IMG/VR virus record: IMGVR_UViG_2913167280_000002
DNA: 46,386 nucleotides
Origin: a virus
Taxonomy: Duplodnaviria > Heunggongvirae > Uroviricota > Caudoviricetes
Direction: 5' to 3' (one strand)
The notes under the pieces: generated by a model
Told to the model about the DNA's origin: nothing
The model's input: the letters and a program-made list of their open reading frames with translations, nothing else
Databases searched by the model: none
Shown here: piece after piece, positions 94 to 23,970 of the stretch
Position numbering within the stretch: position 1 is the stretch's first letter
Layout of the letters: each line of letters begins with the position of its first letter
Position numbers and translations under genes: made by a program

Positions 94-648
94 ATGCAAT
101 ATGGTTATGCGAGGGTGTCAACTTTTGACCAGAATTTGGAATTACAACTGGAGGCGCTCAGGAGTTCAGGATGTGACCGGATTTTTGAAGATAAAATATC
201 CGGTGCTAAATCAAAACGACCAGGACTTGATAAGCTACTGAAGGTGTTACGACCGGGCGATACGGTTATTGTCTGGAAGCTGGACCGAATGGGGCGTTCT
301 CTGATTCATCTTGTTGATTTACTTAACCATTTTTTATCAAACAACATTGAGTTTATTTCGATTACGGAAGGGATAAAAATTAGCACTTCAATTGGCCGCT
401 TTGCCTACACGATGCTGAGTGCAGTCGCAGAGATGGAGCGGGAAAATATGATTGAAAGAACGCGTGCAGGATTGGCGGTGGCAAGGGCTAACGGCAGGAT
501 AGGAGGACGCCGCTCAAAGCTGGCACCAGAGCAATGGGAACAGATCGGAAGGCTTATTGCGAATGGTGTTTCACGTAAGCGGATAGCGATTATCTTCGAT
601 GTTACCTTATCCACGCTTTACCGCAGGTTTCCGGCTGGGAATCATTGA
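94..648 (+). CDS. serine recombinase, DNA invertase (Gin/Cin/Pin/Hin family)
   Basis: N-terminal YARVSTFDQ catalytic-serine motif, resolvase core, C-terminal HTH; 184 aa; adjacent to crossover site. Confidence 0.9.
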   Translation: MQYGYARVSTFDQNLELQLEALRSSGCDRIFEDKISGAKSKRPGLDKLLKVLRPGDTVIVWKLDRMGRSLIHLVDLLNHFLSNNIEFISITEGIKISTSIGRFAYTMLSAVAEMERENMIERTRAGLAVARANGRIGGRRSKLAPEQWEQIGRLIANGVSRKRIAIIFDVTLSTLYRRFPAGNH

Positions 649-777
649 CTGGAGTTAGGCCAGTAGTATGATGCTCGCAAAACGAGATCCAATTTAGATC
701 CTTTTACTGGTGGATTATCGTTCGATCAGTGAGAGACTTCGTGCATGACCGAAAGTGTTGTGGTAGAGTTCTCTTAA

Positions 778-794
778 AACCACGTAACGTGGTT
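778..794. promoter_or_regulatory. operator-like palindrome AACCACGTAACGTGGTT upstream of repA
   Basis: Perfect 7-bp inverted arms; same AACCAC-N5-GTGGTT half-site pattern as the sites around the CI-like repressor gene. Confidence 0.45.
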
Positions 795-835
795 ATGATT
801 GTGGGTGTCTGGTTGGAAACTGACCAGATATGGAA

Positions 836-917
836 ACAAAAAGCCCGCAGATAAATCTGCGGGCTTCTTGCGACATCCACGGAAAAACCAACAAAAATAT
901 CCATGGGCGCCTCGACA
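836..917 (-). ncRNA. candidate CopA-like countertranscript antisense to the repA leader
   Basis: Minus-strand intrinsic terminator (stem GCCCGCAG/CTGCGGGC at 842-863 followed by a T-run on the minus strand) and minus-strand promoter-like TTGCGT-N16-TATAAT (-35 at 951-946, -10 at 929-924). Boundaries approximate. Confidence 0.4.
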
Positions 918-961
918 ACTCCCATTATACGTTGGTTTTCCGTGGACGCAAGAGCGAACAT

Positions 962-1810
962 ATGGATAGACCAATGCCGTCTCTACGTTCAGCTTACGTT
1001 TGTAATTTGTCGCCGGAGTTCCAGCCTCCAAAGCACCATACGCACAAGCTGCCGCTGGTGTTATCTGATGCTTTACAGCGCATTAATGGGCGTGATCTTA
1101 CGTGTGAGGTTGCGTTCTACGTTAATCAACCGTCAGAGCGGAAGCGCCGGATAAACGAGCATCGTCGTCGGGCGATTAATGCTGTGATCGCTGCGATTTT
1201 GCACCATGTAAACATCATTTCTAAGCGGGTTCTGGCTAGTGCTGAGGCGTTGGCTGATTTTTGCGGCCTGTCTACCGTATCCGAAGCAGGGAACAAGTCT
1301 ATAACGCGCTGTACAAGGGCGTTGTCGCAACTGAAAGCGTTAGGTTTTATTGATTATGAACGTCGCTGGGATCGGGTGAATAAACAGTATTGGCCAGCGA
1401 AAATAGAGATTCGTGATCAACTGCTGGAAACCGTTGGTATTACTGAACAAGCATGGAGACGTGCGGTTAGCCAGAAACTTAATTACTTCAATGCGAAGAA
1501 TAGCGAACGGCTTAAAAAAGCGATAACGGAGGCTGATTATAAGCGTATTGTTATTCAGGAGCAGATGGAGAATGTATGGCGTCAGAGGAAGACGGCCAGA
1601 GAGATAAAGGCAAAACAGAAAGCAGCGGAGAGAGCTGCGCGTCTTGTTCGGGAAAAGGGAGAGGCCGAACTTCGTCATCAAATCACTAGAGAGGTTAGCC
1701 AGGAATTTGCTGATGGCATGTATCCTGGAGCTGACCTTGCATATTTACGATCCCTCGTTGAGCAGCGTTATAACAGGTTAAGAAAGACCTGGAAATCACT
1801 CCAACATTAA
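962..1810 (+). CDS. repA: plasmid replication initiator RepA (IncFII RepA1 family)
   Basis: Central KSITRCTRAL...LGFIDYE region resembles the R100 RepA1 SITRATRAL...LGLITYQ signature from memory. Start at 962 (MDRPMP) chosen because the 830 start would place the antisense RNA structures inside the coding region; 830 remains possible. Confidence 0.8.
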   Translation: MDRPMPSLRSAYVCNLSPEFQPPKHHTHKLPLVLSDALQRINGRDLTCEVAFYVNQPSERKRRINEHRRRAINAVIAAILHHVNIISKRVLASAEALADFCGLSTVSEAGNKSITRCTRALSQLKALGFIDYERRWDRVNKQYWPAKIEIRDQLLETVGITEQAWRRAVSQKLNYFNAKNSERLKKAITEADYKRIVIQEQMENVWRQRKTAREIKAKQKAAERAARLVREKGEAELRHQITREVSQEFADGMYPGADLAYLRSLVEQRYNRLRKTWKSLQH

Positions 1811-5608: not shown

Positions 5609-6760
5609 TTATGGTCTGCTTTTCTGTGCCAGCTTATCAGCACATGTTTTTATCAGATCCTGTAGTGTCCTGGCTGGCAGGTTTGCATCCAGAACGCTGA
5701 GTATGCTGTTGTGATCAGCTTGGTCGACTACTTTGCCTGTCGGTGGTAGTAGCTTGAGCTGAGGATTCAGGTTTTCGTCAAAGCTGATAAGTGCTCTGGC
5801 GTTTCTGAGCAGATCAAGAAGTAAGGCTGATATCACATTTTCCTGAGTCATTGCTGGCAGATTTAGCGCCGCTTTGGTTTTCCCTGTTGCCTTGTCAAAC
5901 TCCTTGATTAGTTCCTTTCTGTAGTTCGGTTCCGTTAATAGCCGATTATGCTCTGTTGCCGCGCGGATAATCGTTTTTTCCTGGTACAGTCGTTTAGCCA
6001 GATCGCGCTCGTACTGTGTTTTTAACACGCTGCTGATAGCGTTAAAGGCTTCAATGTAGGCCAGCTTGATATCTTTCACGCCTGGACCGTCGATGCTCTC
6101 CATGAGCAAGGTAAATCCGTCTTTTGTCATGCGATAGATTGTTATTTCGCGGTCGCTTCCTTCCAGCGGTCGTTGCTCTTTAAAGAAGTGACGCGCCGCA
6201 GCCGTGCGAGGAATGCGTAGCGCATCGATGGCCATAACGATGGAATTGTTTGTGGTGCTGAATGCCTGGGCAACATCGGCTGAGGTTGTGAGTGGCTCGT
6301 TGTTGCACACTTTAATGTAAAACATCGGTTTGGCGTTGAGCGTATCGACAACCTCACGAGCATTGTTTGGCGAGACGGTTACGGTCGCGGCCGTTTGCGC
6401 GTTCTGGCTGAAATAGCAGTCTTCCAGCCGTTCGAATACATCCCACGCCTGATCGGTTTCGAGCATTTTAGCGTGACGTGCAGCCCCGCGTTCTGTCCAG
6501 AGGATGAGAGAGCGAGTTTTGGGGGAAATTTGCACCTCATTTTGTGACTCGTTTAAAACTAGTCGCAAATTTTTGAGTTCATCACCAACAGCTTTAAAGA
6601 AGTGCTTCCCCTCAATGAACCGAGTTTTATTTTCATGGTGATTTTGCTGTATACGGATTGCTTCTGTTCCATAAAGGCGGGCGAGTAGCTCAGTTGTGAT
6701 TACTGGAATCTGATTATGCAGGATAGGCTGTAGGGTGTTAACGATCGGAAGCGTTTTCAT
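5609..6760 (-). CDS. phage antirepressor-like protein (Ant/Rha-type)
   Basis: 383 aa; N-terminal region resembles antirepressor/Rha regulatory domains; preceded by an overlapping small ORF as in P1 icd-ant. Confidence 0.5.
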   Translation of the reverse strand: MKTLPIVNTLQPILHNQIPVITTELLARLYGTEAIRIQQNHHENKTRFIEGKHFFKAVGDELKNLRLVLNESQNEVQISPKTRSLILWTERGAARHAKMLETDQAWDVFERLEDCYFSQNAQTAATVTVSPNNAREVVDTLNAKPMFYIKVCNNEPLTTSADVAQAFSTTNNSIVMAIDALRIPRTAAARHFFKEQRPLEGSDREITIYRMTKDGFTLLMESIDGPGVKDIKLAYIEAFNAISSVLKTQYERDLAKRLYQEKTIIRAATEHNRLLTEPNYRKELIKEFDKATGKTKAALNLPAMTQENVISALLLDLLRNARALISFDENLNPQLKLLPPTGKVVDQADHNSILSVLDANLPARTLQDLIKTCADKLAQKSRP

Positions 6761-6948
6761 TTTGCACCTCCCATAACAACTTTGGTTACGAGGGAGATTT
6801 TTGCGTCAGAAACAGCGTTATCGTTGCTGGCGATGCGCATAGCTTCGCGCTCGATGATTTCAGCCAGGCGGAATTTATCGGCGTATGAGGCTTTCTTGAG
6901 AAGGATCTTTACGAGGTTGACGTAATAGTCATGGGGTAGGTTTGTCAT
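6757..6948 (-). CDS. small protein translationally coupled to the antirepressor (icd-like position)
   Basis: 63 aa; ATGA overlap with the antirepressor start. Confidence 0.4.
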   Translation of the reverse strand: MTNLPHDYYVNLVKILLKKASYADKFRLAEIIEREAMRIASNDNAVSDAKISLVTKVVMGGAK

Positions 6949-7113
6949 TGTGATGATTCCCTTAAAGGTTAAGGATACTCACCACCGTCAGGTTCCAATC
7001 ATTGGGTGGTGAGACGTGCAGGGTTGGAACTACCGGACACAATGACGAACCGGCGAGTCTTACGACTCCCCCGCACGCCCCACCATAATTTGGGTGTAGC
7101 AGTGCTTTACGCA

Positions 7114-7200
7114 TAAAAAAACCGCTAACGCGGTATGCGCCATTGTGTCTACGGGGTTCCAATCCCGGCCGTAGATTTTGCTACGGCTCGGAAAGTGTCC
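7114..7200 (-). ncRNA. candidate small regulatory RNA upstream of the antirepressor operon (c4-like position)
   Basis: Minus-strand terminator (stem ACCGC/GCGGT at 7121-7134 plus T-run); hairpin 7149-7174 whose loop carries GGTTCCAAT; no ORF. Boundaries approximate. Confidence 0.3.
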
Positions 7201-7245: not shown

Positions 7246-7263
7246 AACCACATAGTGTGGGTT
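7246..7263. promoter_or_regulatory. operator-like palindrome (ACCAC-N5-GTGGG)
   Basis: aaccacatagtgtgggtt between the divergent antirepressor region and the 7398 HTH gene. Confidence 0.35.
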
Positions 7264-7397
7264 TGAATGCGGGGCTTTTAATTTTCTTGATATGCTAAAA
7301 ACGGGAATGTATAGTTCCTGTAAGGAATCAATTAGTCCTGAGTTATGATGTTTTGTTAAAGTCGGGAACAAGAAAAAATTCAGTATGGGGATAAAAA

Positions 7398-7937
7398 ATG
7401 ATTGAACTGTCAAAAAACTCATGTTTTTCAACCATTCACCTAATGATCATAAAAGAACTTAGGCTAGAAAGAGGTGTGCATCAAGGAGTACTGGCTCAAG
7501 CTGCTGGAAAAACACCAAACGCATGGACAAAGATAGAGAACGGGCAGTCTATATTAACAGTTGACGCCCTTTTTGGTGCTTTCACAGCCCTTAATATTAC
7601 TCCAGTGAATTTCATGTCATTGGTAGAAAATCTTATTCCCGAATTTAACCGTTATGGTTACTTCTTTTTCCCTGGAACAATCAGTCAGGACGAGGATAAC
7701 CTTTTACCTCTGATGCTGCGTTACTTTAATAGCAAGGGGTTTGAAGCATTGAGAAATAGGCCATTAGAAAGAGTTAGCATTAGCTCAATGGGATTCTCAT
7801 TTGGGGGCGGCATCCCTGTTACTCCAACTGCTGTAATGTATTGTTGCGATGAAGCATATAGAAATTGGGTCGATAACGGTGCTGATGTGGATAATCGAGA
7901 TTATCTGGAGTCATCAACAGGTCGTGGACTGTTTTAA
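7398..7937 (+). CDS. HTH (XRE-family) domain protein with C-terminal domain of unknown function
   Basis: N-terminal HTH segment GVLAQAAGKTPNAWTKIENG; 179 aa. Confidence 0.5.
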   Translation: MIELSKNSCFSTIHLMIIKELRLERGVHQGVLAQAAGKTPNAWTKIENGQSILTVDALFGAFTALNITPVNFMSLVENLIPEFNRYGYFFFPGTISQDEDNLLPLMLRYFNSKGFEALRNRPLERVSISSMGFSFGGGIPVTPTAVMYCCDEAYRNWVDNGADVDNRDYLESSTGRGLF

Positions 7938-7982: not shown

Positions 7983-8374
7983 GTGCTGATCGGATTCGCG
8001 GTCCTTTCAGCATTACGTTGTTGTATAAACAACCACGCAAGCACAAGCAGCAAGTTGATTTTACCCAAAAGGTAATAATAGTCCACTATTATGCTTCAAA
8101 AAATTGTGGTTCTTGTTGTGTCTGCAAACTCACAGATTGTGGGTAGGTTACTGATTTTGTGAAAATAAACTGGTTTTTTCGTTTAATTTATTTCCTATTA
8201 CTAATCTTAAAATAATCGTAAAATACCTGTGGACCTTCCCGCCGATTCGCACCCGGGCACCGACTTTAGGGGAGGATTTCCTGTTGCCGTACATGCAAGC
8301 ACAAGCAGCCGTGCTTGCTCTCGCGTTGTTTTCGTCGGTGGGGATGCCGTGAAACGGCCTGTAAGGGCCATACA

Positions 8375-8497
8375 ATGAAAAAATACTGTATGTGTATTTT
8401 TATCGTTGTTACTGGGGCTTTGTTTACGCCACATGGGGAGGGTTGGAAGATTACTGATAACGCTCTGAATGTGACGATAAACATTAGCAGCAAGTAG
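8375..8497 (+). CDS. candidate small hydrophobic peptide (40 aa)
   Basis: MKKYCMCIFIVVTGALFTPHG...; AAGGG about 8 nt upstream; ends just before the terminator at 8503. Speculative. Confidence 0.25.
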   Translation: MKKYCMCIFIVVTGALFTPHGEGWKITDNALNVTINISSK

Positions 8498-8502
8498 CGA
8501 TT

Positions 8503-8526
8503 AGGCCCCTTCGGGGGCCTTTTTTA
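8503..8526 (+). terminator. rho-independent terminator
   Basis: Stem AGGCCCC/GGGGCCT, loop TTCG, then TTTTT. Confidence 0.65.
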
Positions 8527-8996: not shown

Positions 8997-9039
8997 GTGT
9001 ATCCCCTCTTATATAAATCTATAAAACTATAATTATATA

Positions 9040-9693
9040 TTACGCGGCAGTAGTCAGAGCCTCAAGCTGGTTGATAATCCCCTGAATAACGTCGTCTGCC
9101 TTTTTGCGTGGCGCAACGTATGAGCACTCAATGAGGCTTAAGCCCTTATCCTGAGCTTTGCTCAGAGCTGGCTTGTGGGGAATGTACTTATCGACAACAA
9201 AGTATGGCGTATTAGCCAGGTACTCTTGGGCTTCGATGTAGTCAGCTTCGTTTTCAGCCGCGCCGGAAAACACCATGCAAATTTTCTTGATTGGTACGCC
9301 CTTTTTAACGATGCCGTGAGCAGTGTTAACGGTGGTTTCAAGGTCATCGGTAGAGAATCGGGTTGGCAAAATAACCATATCCAGAAATTCAGATAGCTTC
9401 GGTACTGATTCAGATGCGTAGGCACCGCCATCAACGATAACCAGGTCGTATACTTCTGATTCGATGATTTTCTGGACTTGTGATGGCGTGCCGCACGGCT
9501 GCGCCGCGATTGCAGGTTCGATATTGTTGGCCATTCTGCGTTGTACCCAACGCGTTACCGTTCCGTTAAGCACATCCATATCGATCAGGCATACATTCCA
9601 GCCAGCCTTTGCATAAGCAACTGCTAAAGCACGGGCAATGGTTGATTTGGTTACGCCGCCTTTTCCGTTGAAAATACCTACAGATATAGTCAT
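9040..9693 (-). CDS. parA: partition ATPase ParA (small type Ib)
   Basis: Deviant Walker A GKGGVTKST; about 217 aa; GGAG RBS before the second in-frame Met. Confidence 0.8.
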   Translation of the reverse strand: MTISVGIFNGKGGVTKSTIARALAVAYAKAGWNVCLIDMDVLNGTVTRWVQRRMANNIEPAIAAQPCGTPSQVQKIIESEVYDLVIVDGGAYASESVPKLSEFLDMVILPTRFSTDDLETTVNTAHGIVKKGVPIKKICMVFSGAAENEADYIEAQEYLANTPYFVVDKYIPHKPALSKAQDKGLSLIECSYVAPRKKADDVIQGIINQLEALTTAA

Positions 9694-9714
9694 TTGTCGA
9701 GACTCCATGTGTTT

Positions 9715-9825
9715 GATTATATAATTCTATAAATCTATATTTATAGAATGAGGTAAGCATAACCAACTTTTGAGCGGATGAAAAGCACTTTATATAATTA
9801 TATAAATCTATAATATTTAAGCGGG
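9715..9825. repeat. AT-rich octamer arrays upstream of parA (candidate centromere and promoter)
   Basis: Two clusters of TTATATAA/TTATAGAT-type units. Confidence 0.4.
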
Positions 9826-9904
9826 CTGGCGCCCGCTTGCAGTCAGAGGTCAGCTATTGTTGATATCAGTTGATTTGCTAGCTGTCGCTGTTTACGTGAG
9901 AGGG

Positions 9905-10216
9905 TTAGAGCAGCTTCTGAGCGGTCGCTAAGAGGGGGTTTTCATCGAGAATCATGAGGCATACAGAAATAATAGCCCTGTTATATGCCATCAATGGCTG
10001 GCACAGCTTCGATACCGCTGGCACATCGTATTGTAAGGCCGTTTTGAGGCAGACTTTTTGTTCTGATGCCAGATGAAGGATAGATTCTATCCAGTCGATA
10101 TCTTTCTCATTATCAATGATTTGGCATAACATACACTCAATCGCTATGTTCAACGCTTGGATTTCGATTCCAGCAGTGATCAGAGTTTCGTTTTTATTGG
10201 CTGTATGTAATTCCAT
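9905..10216 (-). CDS. hypothetical protein
   Basis: AAGAGG RBS 6 nt upstream of ATG at 10216; operator palindrome about 35 bp upstream. Confidence 0.35.
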   Translation of the reverse strand: MELHTANKNETLITAGIEIQALNIAIECMLCQIIDNEKDIDWIESILHLASEQKVCLKTALQYDVPAVSKLCQPLMAYNRAIISVCLMILDENPLLATAQKLL

Positions 10217-10250
10217 GCGTAGCCTCTTGTATACTTTCACATGTTGTCAA

Positions 10251-10267
10251 AACCACAAAATGTGGTT
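10251..10267. promoter_or_regulatory. operator palindrome AACCACAAAATGTGGTT
   Basis: Perfect 17-bp palindrome between the repressor stop and the next minus-strand gene. Confidence 0.45.
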
Positions 10268-10308
10268 TTTTTGAGCGTAGAAATGCACGGCTTTCGCCGT
10301 GCTGTGTA

Positions 10309-10965
10309 TCATAACCAGTTGACAACACTAACTACGCGGCCCAGAACTTTATAACGCTTAAATTCCTCGTTATTCAGATGCTTAGTGTTCATTTCAGCAT
10401 CCCTTTCGGTTGACAGCATAACAGCATTGTCACCCGGTATGACTCTACAGTGCCTCAAAACAACCAGGCCATTTCTGTCTTCAAGGGCATAGATCCCCTC
10501 ATGAATCTCTGTATCGTCTGTATCAATCAGGACTTGGGAGCCAGGGGATATTGTTGGTGACATTAACTCATCGTTGCTCTGGAGAACTGACAGAGACGAT
10601 GGGTTGATGTTCTTGCTTCGTAGAATCTCCTGTTCTATCGCCAGCACTGGCTTTTCTCCGGCGTGCGATGCTATGTCATTTTTTATAGCTACAAGCCCAG
10701 GAATAACAGGAGCGTTAGTATTCTGGGGTGGGAACGGGTTATCTGTTAAGCACGCGATATAAGGCGCTGATGCTTTCAGGGCGTGAGCGATTTTCTTGAT
10801 GGCAGGTATAGATGGTTGTCTTAATCCGGCCTCATAGTTCTGCAAGGTGCTTAAGCCTATTCCAGTGACTTGCTGGAGATCTCCGGCAGTCATGCCGGAT
10901 TGTTTCCGTAGAGTCTGAATGCGCAGACCTATTTCTTTCTTGATGTTCTCGTCGTTGCTTTTCAT
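10309..10965 (-). CDS. CI-like prophage repressor (HTH plus LexA/S24-like C-terminal domain)
   Basis: N-terminal HTH (LQQVTGIGLSTLQNYEAG) and C-terminal S24-like region; divergent from the early operon. Confidence 0.75.
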   Translation of the reverse strand: MKSNDENIKKEIGLRIQTLRKQSGMTAGDLQQVTGIGLSTLQNYEAGLRQPSIPAIKKIAHALKASAPYIACLTDNPFPPQNTNAPVIPGLVAIKNDIASHAGEKPVLAIEQEILRSKNINPSSLSVLQSNDELMSPTISPGSQVLIDTDDTEIHEGIYALEDRNGLVVLRHCRVIPGDNAVMLSTERDAEMNTKHLNNEEFKRYKVLGRVVSVVNWL

Positions 10966-11002
10966 GTCTCATCAATCGTGAATGGTGGGTTATTTATACA
11001 TT

Positions 11003-11121
11003 ACCACATTTAGTGGTTTTCACGCGGTAAGACGAGATGTGGACCACAAATAGAAGGCTATTTTTTGTTTCGCCCATTGAAAAACTCACGATATGTGGTT
11101 TTAATACCACATATCGTGGTT
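11003..11121. promoter_or_regulatory. immunity-switch operator cluster
   Basis: ACCACATTTAGTGGT (11003-11017), CTCACGATATGTGGTT (11085-11100) and ACCACATATCGTGGTT (11106-11121) in the divergent intergenic region; rightward promoter-like TTGAAA-N17-TTAATA overlaps the last two. Confidence 0.5.
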
Positions 11122-11138
11122 TAACTGGAGTTCGTTAA

Positions 11139-11633
11139 ATGACCTTTCAGGAGTGGGTTGACGAAAATGGAGGCCAAATTGGTGTTGCCAGAAAGTTTGG
11201 CTTTACGTCATCACTGATTGGTGCCTGGTATCGCTTCGAGAGATTCCCTCGTGCGGATAACCTGACGCTGCTGGTGGCGTATTCGGAAGGCCGGATTAAC
11301 GTCCAGCAATGGGCGGCAGATTTTGCCGAACGTCAGCGCCAGCGTAGCGATGGCACATCGGTTCGGCAGAACAAGATCAAAGGGAATCTCCCTGTTAACT
11401 GCTTATCAAGGCTGAAAGCGGTTTTCTCTGAGCTGGGGATGCCTGCGGAGCGTTGCAATCTACGCGGTCCGCGATTCATTGCTCGCTGGAAACACTCACA
11501 CGTAACCGTTTCAGAGGTTCGTGATGCGATTGCCGTGCTGGAGTTTAAGAATAAAGATTCCAGCGATATCGAGCTGATTCATAAGGAGATTAGCAACGCC
11601 CGGCGTTCAGCACTTGGGAGGCTTGAGGAATGA
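11139..11633 (+). CDS. first early-operon protein, putative Cro-like or regulatory protein
   Basis: Divergent from the repressor; N-terminal HTH-like segment; GGAG RBS. Confidence 0.35.
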   Translation: MTFQEWVDENGGQIGVARKFGFTSSLIGAWYRFERFPRADNLTLLVAYSEGRINVQQWAADFAERQRQRSDGTSVRQNKIKGNLPVNCLSRLKAVFSELGMPAERCNLRGPRFIARWKHSHVTVSEVRDAIAVLEFKNKDSSDIELIHKEISNARRSALGRLEE

Positions 11634-12145
11634 TGATTCTGGCCTTCTTTGGTGATAATCACCAGATTCAATCGCAGGTGGTGCACTACCTTGATCAAAC
11701 GATTAAGGGATTTGTTATCGATCATATTGATAACGATAGTAAACGTCTATCTGTAGAGCAGAAAATTGGACGTGTGCAGCGACTGGTTGCCAGCCGTAAC
11801 AGACGTGACACCGTAACAGTCGTCACGGGGATAACGGAGGTCATGGAGTACCAGATGTTGCTGCATCGTGGAGCTGTTTTCTGCGTTCTTCCTGGCATTC
11901 TGCCAGCAATTCTTGCTCGTGGTTTTGTCCCTATTGATGAGTCGTTTTTATATGTAACCCCAAGCCGTTCTCTTCTGGATACGGAGGCGAAGCGTCGCAT
12001 TTATATGCTGCCGGACGAGGCATTTTCTGAATGTTACCGCCGTGAAATGAGGTTGGGTAAACGAGATGTGTCTGTTTCTCGTAATGGCAGGTTTTTAAGC
12101 AGCCGCACGGTGAAAAGCACCAGAAATGACGGGGGCCATCAATGA
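11630..12145 (+). CDS. hypothetical protein
   Basis: Translationally coupled (ATGA overlap). Confidence 0.4.
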   Translation: MMILAFFGDNHQIQSQVVHYLDQTIKGFVIDHIDNDSKRLSVEQKIGRVQRLVASRNRRDTVTVVTGITEVMEYQMLLHRGAVFCVLPGILPAILARGFVPIDESFLYVTPSRSLLDTEAKRRIYMLPDEAFSECYRREMRLGKRDVSVSRNGRFLSSRTVKSTRNDGGHQ

Positions 12146-17970: not shown

Positions 17971-18115
17971 GTATTGTTTTTTTATTGATCGATTAACCAC
18001 ATTTTGAAGGTTTTTTTTATGGGAAAACCTTGTTTTAGGTGGTAACTGGGTGTAGTGTTTCATTTAACGTAGTAAAACTGCGTTAAGCGATTACCGCGTA
18101 ATTTGTTGCTTTATG

Positions 18116-19936: not shown

Positions 19937-20012
19937 GGCCCCTTAGCTCAGTGGTTAGAGCAGGCGACTCATAATCGCACGGTCATCGGTTCAAGTCCGG
20001 TAGGGGCCACCA
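19937..20012 (+). tRNA. tRNA with CAU anticodon (Met or lysidine-modified Ile)
   Basis: 76 nt; 7-bp acceptor stem, D-arm GCTC/GAGC, anticodon loop CTCATAA, T-loop TTCAAGT, encoded CCA; one G-A mismatch at the top of the anticodon stem. Confidence 0.75.
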
Positions 20013-23346: not shown

Positions 23347-23970
23347 ATGACAAAACAACTTAATGTGGTTTCTTTACCACTTTCTGTGTTGATTGGTTAT
23401 GAAAAGAACGCTCGCACACACTCCGTGGAGCAGGTAGATCAGATTGTTGCCAGCATACAGGAGTACGGATGGACTAATCCGATCCTGATAGACGAGAACA
23501 ACGTTGTAATTGCTGGTCATGGTCGAATTGCTGCGGCCACTCAGTTGGGGATGGATGATGTTCCCTGCATTGTTCTGGCTGGGCTAACGGAGAATCAGAA
23601 GAAGGCATATCGTCTGGCCGACAACCGTATTCCGCTGAATGCTGGTTGGGATGAAGAGCTGTTAAGCGCGGAGCTTGCAGATCTTGCGGCCGATGATTTT
23701 GCTCTGGACTCAATTGGTTTTACTCAGCGCGAACTGGATAACTTATTGAGTGCGGCGGTCTACGATGACACAGAGGGTATGGATATCCCATTTGAGAAGG
23801 ATGAGGCCAAATCAGGCGTAAAAGTTCAGTACCTGTCATTTGGAGGTCATAAAATCCCGGCAACGGATGAGGAAGCGGATCGTTTTGACTGCGCGGTGTC
23901 TCGTTATGTTGATGATAATGGCAGCTATATCGGATTTGTATCCGCATTGCTGGCTGGGGAGGTGTGCTGA
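23347..23970 (+). CDS. ParB-like nuclease-domain protein
   Basis: ParB N-terminal-domain pattern ...NPILIDENNVVIAGHGRIAAA...; paralogous to the 26636 protein. Confidence 0.6.
   Translation: MTKQLNVVSLPLSVLIGYEKNARTHSVEQVDQIVASIQEYGWTNPILIDENNVVIAGHGRIAAATQLGMDDVPCIVLAGLTENQKKAYRLADNRIPLNAGWDEELLSAELADLAADDFALDSIGFTQRELDNLLSAAVYDDTEGMDIPFEKDEAKSGVKVQYLSFGGHKIPATDEEADRFDCAVSRYVDDNGSYIGFVSALLAGEVC

Follow-up and report, generated by a model that had tools for sequence, protein, structure and literature searches.

The window analysed here, the whole 46,386-nucleotide stretch of IMG/VR record IMGVR_UViG_2913167280_000002, is a circular phage-plasmid of ~46 kb whose immunity region consists of a leftward gene for a CI-like repressor and a divergent gene in the cro position (Table 1). 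An earlier interpretation made from the DNA letters alone (the sequence-only reading) had taken the former for the repressor gene of an immunity switch, flanked by palindromes of an AACCAC-N5-GTGGTT family, and had noticed related palindromes at the plasmid replication gene repA and in the region of an antirepressor gene, ant. The identification of the repressor holds. The protein matches Pfam HTH_3 (E=4.5e-11; 43 bits against a cut-off of 23), phrog_4 "transcriptional repressor" (1.8e-27) and, over residues 110-214, phrog_6201 "CI-like repressor" (1.4e-9), while its match to Peptidase_S24 is weak (5.7e-4; 20.0 bits, under the curated cut-off of 23.3); a comparison of its C-terminal domain by sequence with solved structures gave nothing useful. 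The protein encoded at the cro position has no Pfam match, and its location and helix-turn-helix (HTH)-like N-terminal segment suggest a Cro analogue. All six palindromes named by the sequence-only reading are present, with boundaries no more than 1 nt from those it had given.

The element is neither rare nor confined to one genus. Across positions 9800-11700 the window shares 98.7-99.0% identity with 58 plasmids of ~46-51 kb, all non-mobilizable; 57 come from the genus Escherichia, mostly from E. coli, and the other is a Klebsiella plasmid. Matches to three Yersinia phages, vB_YpM_39, 41 and 44, were found as well, and a tblastn search with CI adds a plasmid of 48,488 bp from E. coli ATCC 25922. 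Those relatives that are annotated are phage-plasmids whose structural module is of the contractile-tail type, and their genes run in the order tail-fibre invertase, IncFII-type repA, RelE/ParE toxin-antitoxin pair, Rha/ORF6N antirepressor, ParA and HTH repressor, with a rightward early operon carrying Ref and DUF1064 genes that diverges from the repressor gene. Syntenic relatives at several distances from the window (W) were drawn from PLSDB and IMG/VR. They include the close relative L001, the Salmonella plasmid pAR-0407-1 (L002; CI 66% identical) with its near-identical counterpart L013, L014 (CI 62% identical), and the distant lineages L003 (Serratia marcescens YL4 p2), L015 and the L016/17/18 group, in which CI is ~30-36% identical. 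A scan of genome contigs with the CI alignment yielded no confirmed relatives, and searches of the literature by phage name, by the accession of the ATCC 25922 plasmid and by the term "phage-like plasmid" turned up nothing on this family, its regulation included.

Table 1. Palindromic sites, genes and predicted control elements of the window. Site mismatches are counted against AACCAC-N5-GTGGTT; promoters, extended -10 elements and the antisense unit are predictions. PWM, position weight matrix.
Feature	Position	Strand	Sequence	Remarks
repA site	778-794		AACCACGTAACGTGGTT	0 mismatches
Antirepressor site	7246-7262		AACCACATAGTGTGGGT	1 mismatch
OL-like site	10251-10267		AACCACAAAATGTGGTT	0 mismatches
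OR3-like site	11002-11018		TACCACATTTAGTGGTT	1 mismatch
Lone half-site	11043-11047		ACCAC	between OR3 and OR2; invariant in four-sequence alignment
OR2-like site	11084-11100		ACTCACGATATGTGGTT	2 mismatches
OR1-like site	11105-11121		TACCACATATCGTGGTT	1 mismatch
Candidate seventh site	17995-18011		AACCACATTTTGAAGGT	upstream of holin gene (18113); PWM 12.4 bits
Doubtful further site	23354-23370		AACAACTTAATGTGGTT	1 mismatch; begins 7 nt into a ParB_N-domain gene, the first of a new transcription unit
CI-like repressor gene	10309-10965	-		218 aa; HTH_3 and degenerate S24-like C-terminal domain
Likely cI promoter, extended -10	11006-10998	-	TGGTAATGT	overlapped by OR3
cI terminator hairpin	10287-10304	-		after stop codon; T-run degenerate in E. 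coli clade
PR, for cro-like gene	11077-11105	+	TTGAAA, 17 nt, TTTAAT	-35 at 11077-11082, -10 at 11100-11105
cro-position gene	11139-11633	+		164 aa; phrog_7452; syntenic in all relatives
repA, IncFII_repA family	830-1810	+		Pfam PF02387 1.3e-43, matching from residue 53
Upstream repA promoter	645-672	+	TTGACT, 16 nt, TATGAT	operator-free
Repressor-controlled repA promoter, extended -10	761-769	+	TGGTAGAGT
CopA-like antisense RNA unit	836-952	-	TTGCGT, 16 nt, TATAAT	promoter 952-925; strong terminator ~871-836
isrK	7115-7187	-		Rfam 70.0 bits (gathering score 50)
C4 antisense RNA	7002-7090	-		Rfam 77.8 bits (gathering score 45)
63-aa open reading frame	6757-6948	-		between C4 and ant
Antirepressor gene ant	5609-6760	-		Pfam ORF6N 3.3e-20, Phage_pRha 3.8e-12; PHROG anti-repressor down to 3e-62
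ant-operon promoter P1	7194-7222	-	TTGACA, 17 nt, GACACT	operator-free; start = isrK 5' end 7187
ant promoter P2, extended -10	7240-7232	-	TGTTAAAAT
ParA gene	9040-9708	-		near OL, with a ~103-aa gene between

The palindromes form a family that is enriched in the window. The genome-wide motif scan that had been suggested as a check on the sequence-only reading places the named sites on top: at no more than 2 mismatches, AACCAC-N5-GTGGTT occurs nine times against 1.54 expected, a number that none of 100 dinucleotide shuffles reaches, and at 0, ≤1 and ≤2 mismatches the observed counts of 2, 6 and 9 stand against Markov-null means of 0, 0.087 and 1.49, each count being reached in 0 of 300 Markov simulations. 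Scoring was done with a symmetric 21-nt PWM trained on the six named sites, for which matches of at least 12 bits are expected 0.12 times per genome and noise stays under 8.5 bits; outside its training set it finds sites at 23354 (19.7 bits), 17995 (12.4 bits) and 8128 (12.0 bits). Two 2-mismatch matches, at 9627 and 41190, were set aside as chance, lying inside genes and in a number that fits expectation. If CI binds these sites, the sequence read by its dimer would be (A/T)ACCAC-N5-GTGGT(T/A).

Conservation separates the half-sites of this palindrome from its centre. The sites that flank cI, as the sequence-only reading had described them, are kept in position across five lineages with variable spacers; in L002, L013 and L014 every immunity site lies in the same place with its half-sites intact and a different spacer, examples of the drift being AAAAT versus GAAAC at OL and GTAAC versus GTTGT at repA. 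The half-sites of OR1 are invariant in W, L001, L002 and L014 around a variable spacer, the weak left half of OR2 (CTCAC or CCCAC) is a conserved trait of that position, and the centre-to-centre distance between the two is 21 bp in all three clades. OL is a perfect palindrome with different spacers in W, L002, L013 and L014, and among the near-identical E. coli copies the changes within it are confined to the spacer. In L003, L015, L016 and L018 it is swapped for two tandem GTGGT or GTAGT sites; these distant lineages carry GTGGT or GTAGT half-sites with a weak second half, paired 19-21 bp apart, at PR and after cI.

The same sites are placed on the likely control elements of the switch. That the last two palindromes overlap a rightward promoter is confirmed by direct reading, OR2 falling in the spacer of the predicted PR and OR1 over its -10 element and start site. 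PR is conserved as TTGAnA...TTTAAT or TTAAAT in L002 and L014, and it is missed by a simple promoter scan because the rule of that scan demands A at position 2 of the -10. OR3 overlaps the likely leftward promoter of cI, whose extended -10 is likewise conserved (TGGTAAAGT in L002, TGGTAATGT in L014). OL lies between the cI terminator, in which a T-run follows the hairpin in L002, L014, L003, L015 and L016, and the next leftward gene (~103 aa, then parA). As a separate observation, the stretch from OR2 to OR1 (11087-11118), including the spacers, is a single perfect palindrome whose arms measure 13 bp; this holds for the E. coli clade alone and is not conserved in Salmonella or L014.

The extension of the family to plasmid replication is carried by the repA site. 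The start of repA is probably near 965 or 977, position 830 being too far upstream; the annotated start in L002 is the equivalent of 977. The upstream of the two predicted repA promoters takes the form TTGACG, 17 nt, TAGAAT in distant lineages. The extended -10 of the downstream one, TGnTAGAGT, is invariant in W, L002, L003, L015 and L016, and directly 3' of it there is always an operator-type sequence, at about +3 to +19 of the likely start. This sequence follows the immunity region of its own genome: CGAAATGTGGTTTT at L003 repA equals a 14-nt stretch of the L003 OL, CAATTTGTGGT at L015 repA matches the L015 OR, and TGACTACAAAA, an ACTAC-type sequence at L016 repA, matches two sites in the L016 OR. 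When the 40 nt after TAGAGT are compared with the immunity regions of the same genome, the longest exact match reaches 14 nt for L002 as well as L003, and 11 nt for both L015 and L016; control windows do as well in none of more than 6000 cases each for L002 and L003, and at frequencies of 0.008 (L015) and 0.009 (L016). In a cross-genome matrix the best match is to the own genome in four of five lineages. This co-variation is the strongest evidence that one factor may read both the immunity and the repA sites, and with an operator-type sequence in every lineage that tracks its own operator variant, the assignment of repA to the proposed regulon is well supported at the sequence level. Plasmids pairing this repA with another repressor, as after a natural immunity swap, were sought and none was found, repA and cI always occurring together (62 and 61 records).

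Other features of the repA leader are also conserved. An antisense RNA of ~80 nt is predicted within it, and the terminator hairpin and promoter-region block (CCTCGACAACTCC, + strand) of this unit are retained in five lineages; the unit matches no Rfam family at threshold, CopA included. Two GATC sites between the repA promoters (686-700, 724-727) are invariant in five lineages, with a third nearby, and may confer Dam/SeqA-sensitive control on repA transcription.

At the antirepressor the picture depends on the lineage. The operon reads isrK, C4, a 63-aa open reading frame and ant. Its operator-free promoter P1 is conserved in W, L001, L002 and L014, and a second predicted promoter, P2, has the palindrome ~8 nt upstream of its -10, covering the -35 region (about -37 to -21). 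L014 has a site (AACCACAATGCGTGATT) and a -10 (TGGTAGATT) in the same place, and the site recurs with other spacers in L001, L005, L007 and L014. L001 retains it despite different upstream flanking DNA and without the gene for a 179-aa HTH protein found beside it in W. The antirepressor arm of the proposed regulon is therefore only partly general, its site being present in the E. coli clade and L014 and absent from Salmonella (L002, L013), Serratia (L003) and L016; going by these alignments the arm is probably real but lineage-specific. Two side observations belong to this locus. The isrK-C4 tandem combines a C4 like that of phage P1 immI with an IsrK like that of Gifsy-1. The accessory 179-aa HTH_3 protein (7398-7937, +), which has its own promoter-like sequence (7287-7315), is absent from the close relative L001.

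Within the CI protein, conservation is concentrated in the part expected to touch DNA. The recognition helix STLQNYEAG, within TGI..STLQNYEAG.R (CI residues ~34-49), is invariant in all five lineages at an overall identity of ~30%, which fits the persistence of GTGGT or GTAGT half-sites and suggests a conserved specificity, possibly with cross-immunity across genera. The C-terminal domain appears to lack the means of self-cleavage. In a MAFFT alignment the catalytic Ser of GxSM falls opposite Leu134 (ELM or DLL in all lineages) and the Lys opposite Arg174, and CI of the window has Pro-Gly where an Ala-Gly cleavage site is expected. A search allowing up to 3 mismatches from the consensus found no LexA box, near ant and cI in particular, and the sole CTGT-N8-ACAG of the window sits in a structural gene, at chance level. 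SOS induction, which the sequence-only reading had proposed as a test condition, is thus without sequence support: with neither a Ser/Lys dyad in CI nor a LexA box near ant or cI, induction probably proceeds by the antirepressor rather than by CI self-cleavage.

Taken together, we consider it likely, though by no means settled, that the palindromes are operators of the CI-like repressor of this circular phage-plasmid. Several points weigh against this conclusion. The promoters and starts come from consensus matching, and outside support, from an Rfam model, exists for the 5' end of isrK only. The six named sites score 25-31 bits by the PWM, a circular result because the same sites trained it. 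The match between the repA and immunity sites of the window itself is the weakest of the five (10 nt, p=0.02), no convincing sigma-70 promoter can be assigned at OL, and L002, L013, L003 and L016 have neither the ant site nor the P2 -10, so that the ant arm is not core. The alignment of the Ser and Lys positions relied on lambda CI and LexA sequences entered by hand, and identity to them is only 15-19%. Finally, the operator role itself rests on sequence, and a cro-like protein or another conserved neighbour could bind some or all of the sites. We regard it as unlikely that the main or only binder is such a neighbour, be it the 164-aa cro-position protein, the 171-aa protein encoded next to it or the ~103-aa protein encoded downstream of cI. 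In every lineage these genes keep their synteny with the sites, the cro-position protein contains an invariant GFT-S--G-W-R-ERFP that reads like a helix-turn-helix, and a lytic repressor usually has one or more operators in common with CI. However, CI alone among the candidates has a recognised DNA-binding domain and repressor family matches, its recognition helix stays invariant while the remaining protein drops to 30% identity, and the form of the palindrome, 17 bp long with half-sites of 5-6 bp, is suited to an HTH_3 repressor that binds as a dimer. In phiKO2, the specificities of the prophage repressor CB and of Cro differ, and Cro binds OR3 only (PMC4997575).

The remaining explanations concern single sites or the nature of the family. 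IncFII plasmids such as R1 have a dedicated repressor, CopB, that controls the downstream repA promoter, and the repA palindrome sits at the corresponding promoter; it might then be an operator for a CopB-like or RepA-type autoregulator whose likeness to the cI-flanking sites is coincidental. This we hold to be improbable: there is no copB-like open reading frame between the 645-672 and TGnTAGAGT promoters, the site follows the immunity variant of its own genome in L002, L003, L015 and L016, and two perfect 12-base matches in 46 kb are beyond chance expectation. The presence of a ParA gene near OL brings to mind dispersed partition (centromere) sites, N15 having dispersed palindromic centromeres (sopC) and RK2 dispersed operators bound by KorB. 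Such a role was rejected, as the par locus has its own 8-bp repeats of the TATAAATC type flanking parA and the AACCAC sites coincide with elements of the cI, cro, repA and ant promoters; we give it very little credence. We give just as little credence to the view that the palindromes are RNA hairpins, terminators or chance matches. Immediately beyond the cI terminator, OL does offer a stem of 9 bp with U residues after it, and OR1 and OR2 together fold at -24 kcal/mol and are terminator-like by scan. Yet single sites fold weakly (-5.5 to -8.4 kcal/mol; one z = -0.6), and the OR1+OR2 hairpin is not kept in L002 or L014, where the half-sites are; a hairpin or terminator role was rejected on these grounds for the family as a whole. 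Spacers moreover vary freely, the sites fall within promoter spacers that are not transcribed, and the degree of enrichment rules out chance.

If the palindromes are indeed CI operators, a mechanism can be outlined. Two CI dimers on OR1 and OR2, 21 bp apart, would shut off PR of the cro-like early operon, and a dimer on OR3, overlapping the extended -10 promoter of cI, would limit CI synthesis. A dimer on OL would control the next leftward gene or pair with OR by looping. At the replicon, a CI dimer just downstream of TGnTAGAGT would block that repA promoter, leaving prophage replication to the operator-free upstream promoter under the restraint of the CopA-like antisense RNA. Transcription into isrK-C4-orf63-ant would be lowered, in the E. 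coli clade, by a dimer that covers the -35 region of the extra promoter. The antirepressor would then release all CI-held promoters together and raise RepA for lytic replication. Among the other open reading frames that were scanned, no phage-type replication gene was recognised, so that RepA may also serve lytic replication, although many open reading frames are without assignment. The regulon of lysogeny, antirepressor and plasmid replication put forward by the sequence-only reading would on this account stand for the switch and repA, its antirepressor component being limited to some lineages.

The regulon may also reach beyond these loci. The variant site at 17995-18011, AACCAC-N5-GAAGGTT, lies before the lysis genes, and in L002, L013, L014 and L007 its AACCAC and GAAGG parts are invariant and its spacer is variable; it may be a further member. 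Behind it lies an almost invariant block of ~70 nt (18030-18100), and 17995-18100 could be a late or lysis control region. The site at 23354 is of doubtful function because a synonymous change in L002 (Salmonella) weakens the match. A weak CI-type site at 8128-8144 (ACTCACAGATTGTGGGT, 12 bits), present in the E. coli clade only, lies ~85 nt upstream of a full-length ryfA-family RNA (8229-8525, +; 143 bits), a family that encodes a small toxic peptide. Elsewhere in the window, arrays of 8-bp repeats, TATAAATC or TATAATTC, stand on both sides of parA (9009-9039 and 9709-9820) and are likely the partition centromere and par operator, and a tRNA-Met (CAT) gene (19937-20012, +) is found between the lysis genes and an MT-A70 methyltransferase gene.

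A more pointed formulation, which we offer tentatively and consider rather doubtful, is that a single CI, unable to cleave itself, has come to occupy the place of CopB in an IncFII replicon, and would thereby set the lysis-lysogeny decision, the copy number and the switch to lytic replication, as well as ant in some lineages and possibly the lysis region. If true, a dispersed regulon would have frozen the recognition helix, invariant at 30% identity, and the E. coli, Salmonella and Serratia members would be largely homoimmune, which is unusual among temperate phages. The element is carried by ~60 sequenced Escherichia plasmids of 46-51 kb, that of the reference strain ATCC 25922 among them, and is matched by three isolates of Yersinia phages. 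The operator map leads to testable predictions on the coupling of lysogeny to copy number, the route of induction and mutual immunity among members.

Among known systems, N15 and phiKO2 offer a close functional parallel. Their repressor CB, like CI, is an HTH repressor with a C-terminal domain that lacks the Ser/Lys dyad, although CI and N15 CB share only 24% identity (pairwise E=9e-5). They have an operator cluster between repressor gene and cro, further operators beyond the repressor gene, and an encoded antirepressor; the window has three sites plus a half-site in the interval from cI to the cro-position gene, and lineages other than its own retain them. Binding of the N15 and phiKO2 repressors to the repA promoter reduces copy number (PMC4997575), and similar control is suggested here by the site overlapping the repA promoter. 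The operators themselves differ, being 17-bp ACCAC-N5-GTGGT here and 16-bp TA-N10-TA there (PMC4997575). Moreover, repA of the window is an IncFII-family gene with a predicted antisense RNA, and as 9.5 kb separate it from cI, its operator is distinct from OL, unlike in N15; and the window is a circular plasmid whereas N15 is linear.

Phage P1 provides a second parallel. Its C1 repressor represses c4-icd-ant together with C4 RNA (PMC8198154). Like P1, the window would be a plasmid prophage governed by a single master repressor whose operators are scattered along it, and like P1 immI it has a C4 antisense RNA and a small open reading frame leading the antirepressor operon; unlike P1, it has isrK before C4, and a predicted repressor site at ant is found in some lineages only. 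P1 C1 is not known to be related to CI-type HTH_3 proteins; it binds asymmetric 17-bp sites and controls a separate lytic replicon, repL, rather than plasmid repA.

The immunity switch itself resembles that of lambda. In both, cI diverges from the gene in the cro position and the operators are 17 bp long and two-fold symmetric, with one half stronger than the other; both also have adjacent sites on the same helix face over PR, a third over the cI promoter and a distal OL. The lambda operators, TAYCAC-N5-GTGRTA, offer a lead only. Unlike lambda, the window encodes a CI without the autocleavage dyad and a cro-position protein of 164 aa lacking a Pfam match, has a single OL in the E. coli clade, and carries extra operators at repA and ant; OR3 is 82 bp from OR2, which makes a lambda-style activation of PRM by OR2-bound CI unlikely. 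The replicon, on the other hand, resembles those of the IncFII plasmids R1 and R100. The scheme of R1 replication (PcopB, PrepA/CopB, CopA RNA) is established knowledge, and the window shares with these plasmids the RepA family, tandem repA promoters of which the downstream one has a repressor site, and a leader countertranscript with its own promoter and terminator, here predicted. It departs from them in having no copB gene, in a repressor site with the sequence of a prophage operator and in an antisense unit unmatched by Rfam CopA.

The element thus appears, as far as its sequence can tell, to work like N15 and P1 without homologous membership in either. Its design, a master repressor with operators at the switch, repA and ant, is already known from those two phages and introduces no new principle; it would instead add, beside N15 and P1, a third worked example of a prophage repressor that reaches plasmid replication, one in which a lambda-like repressor is joined to an R1-like replicon.

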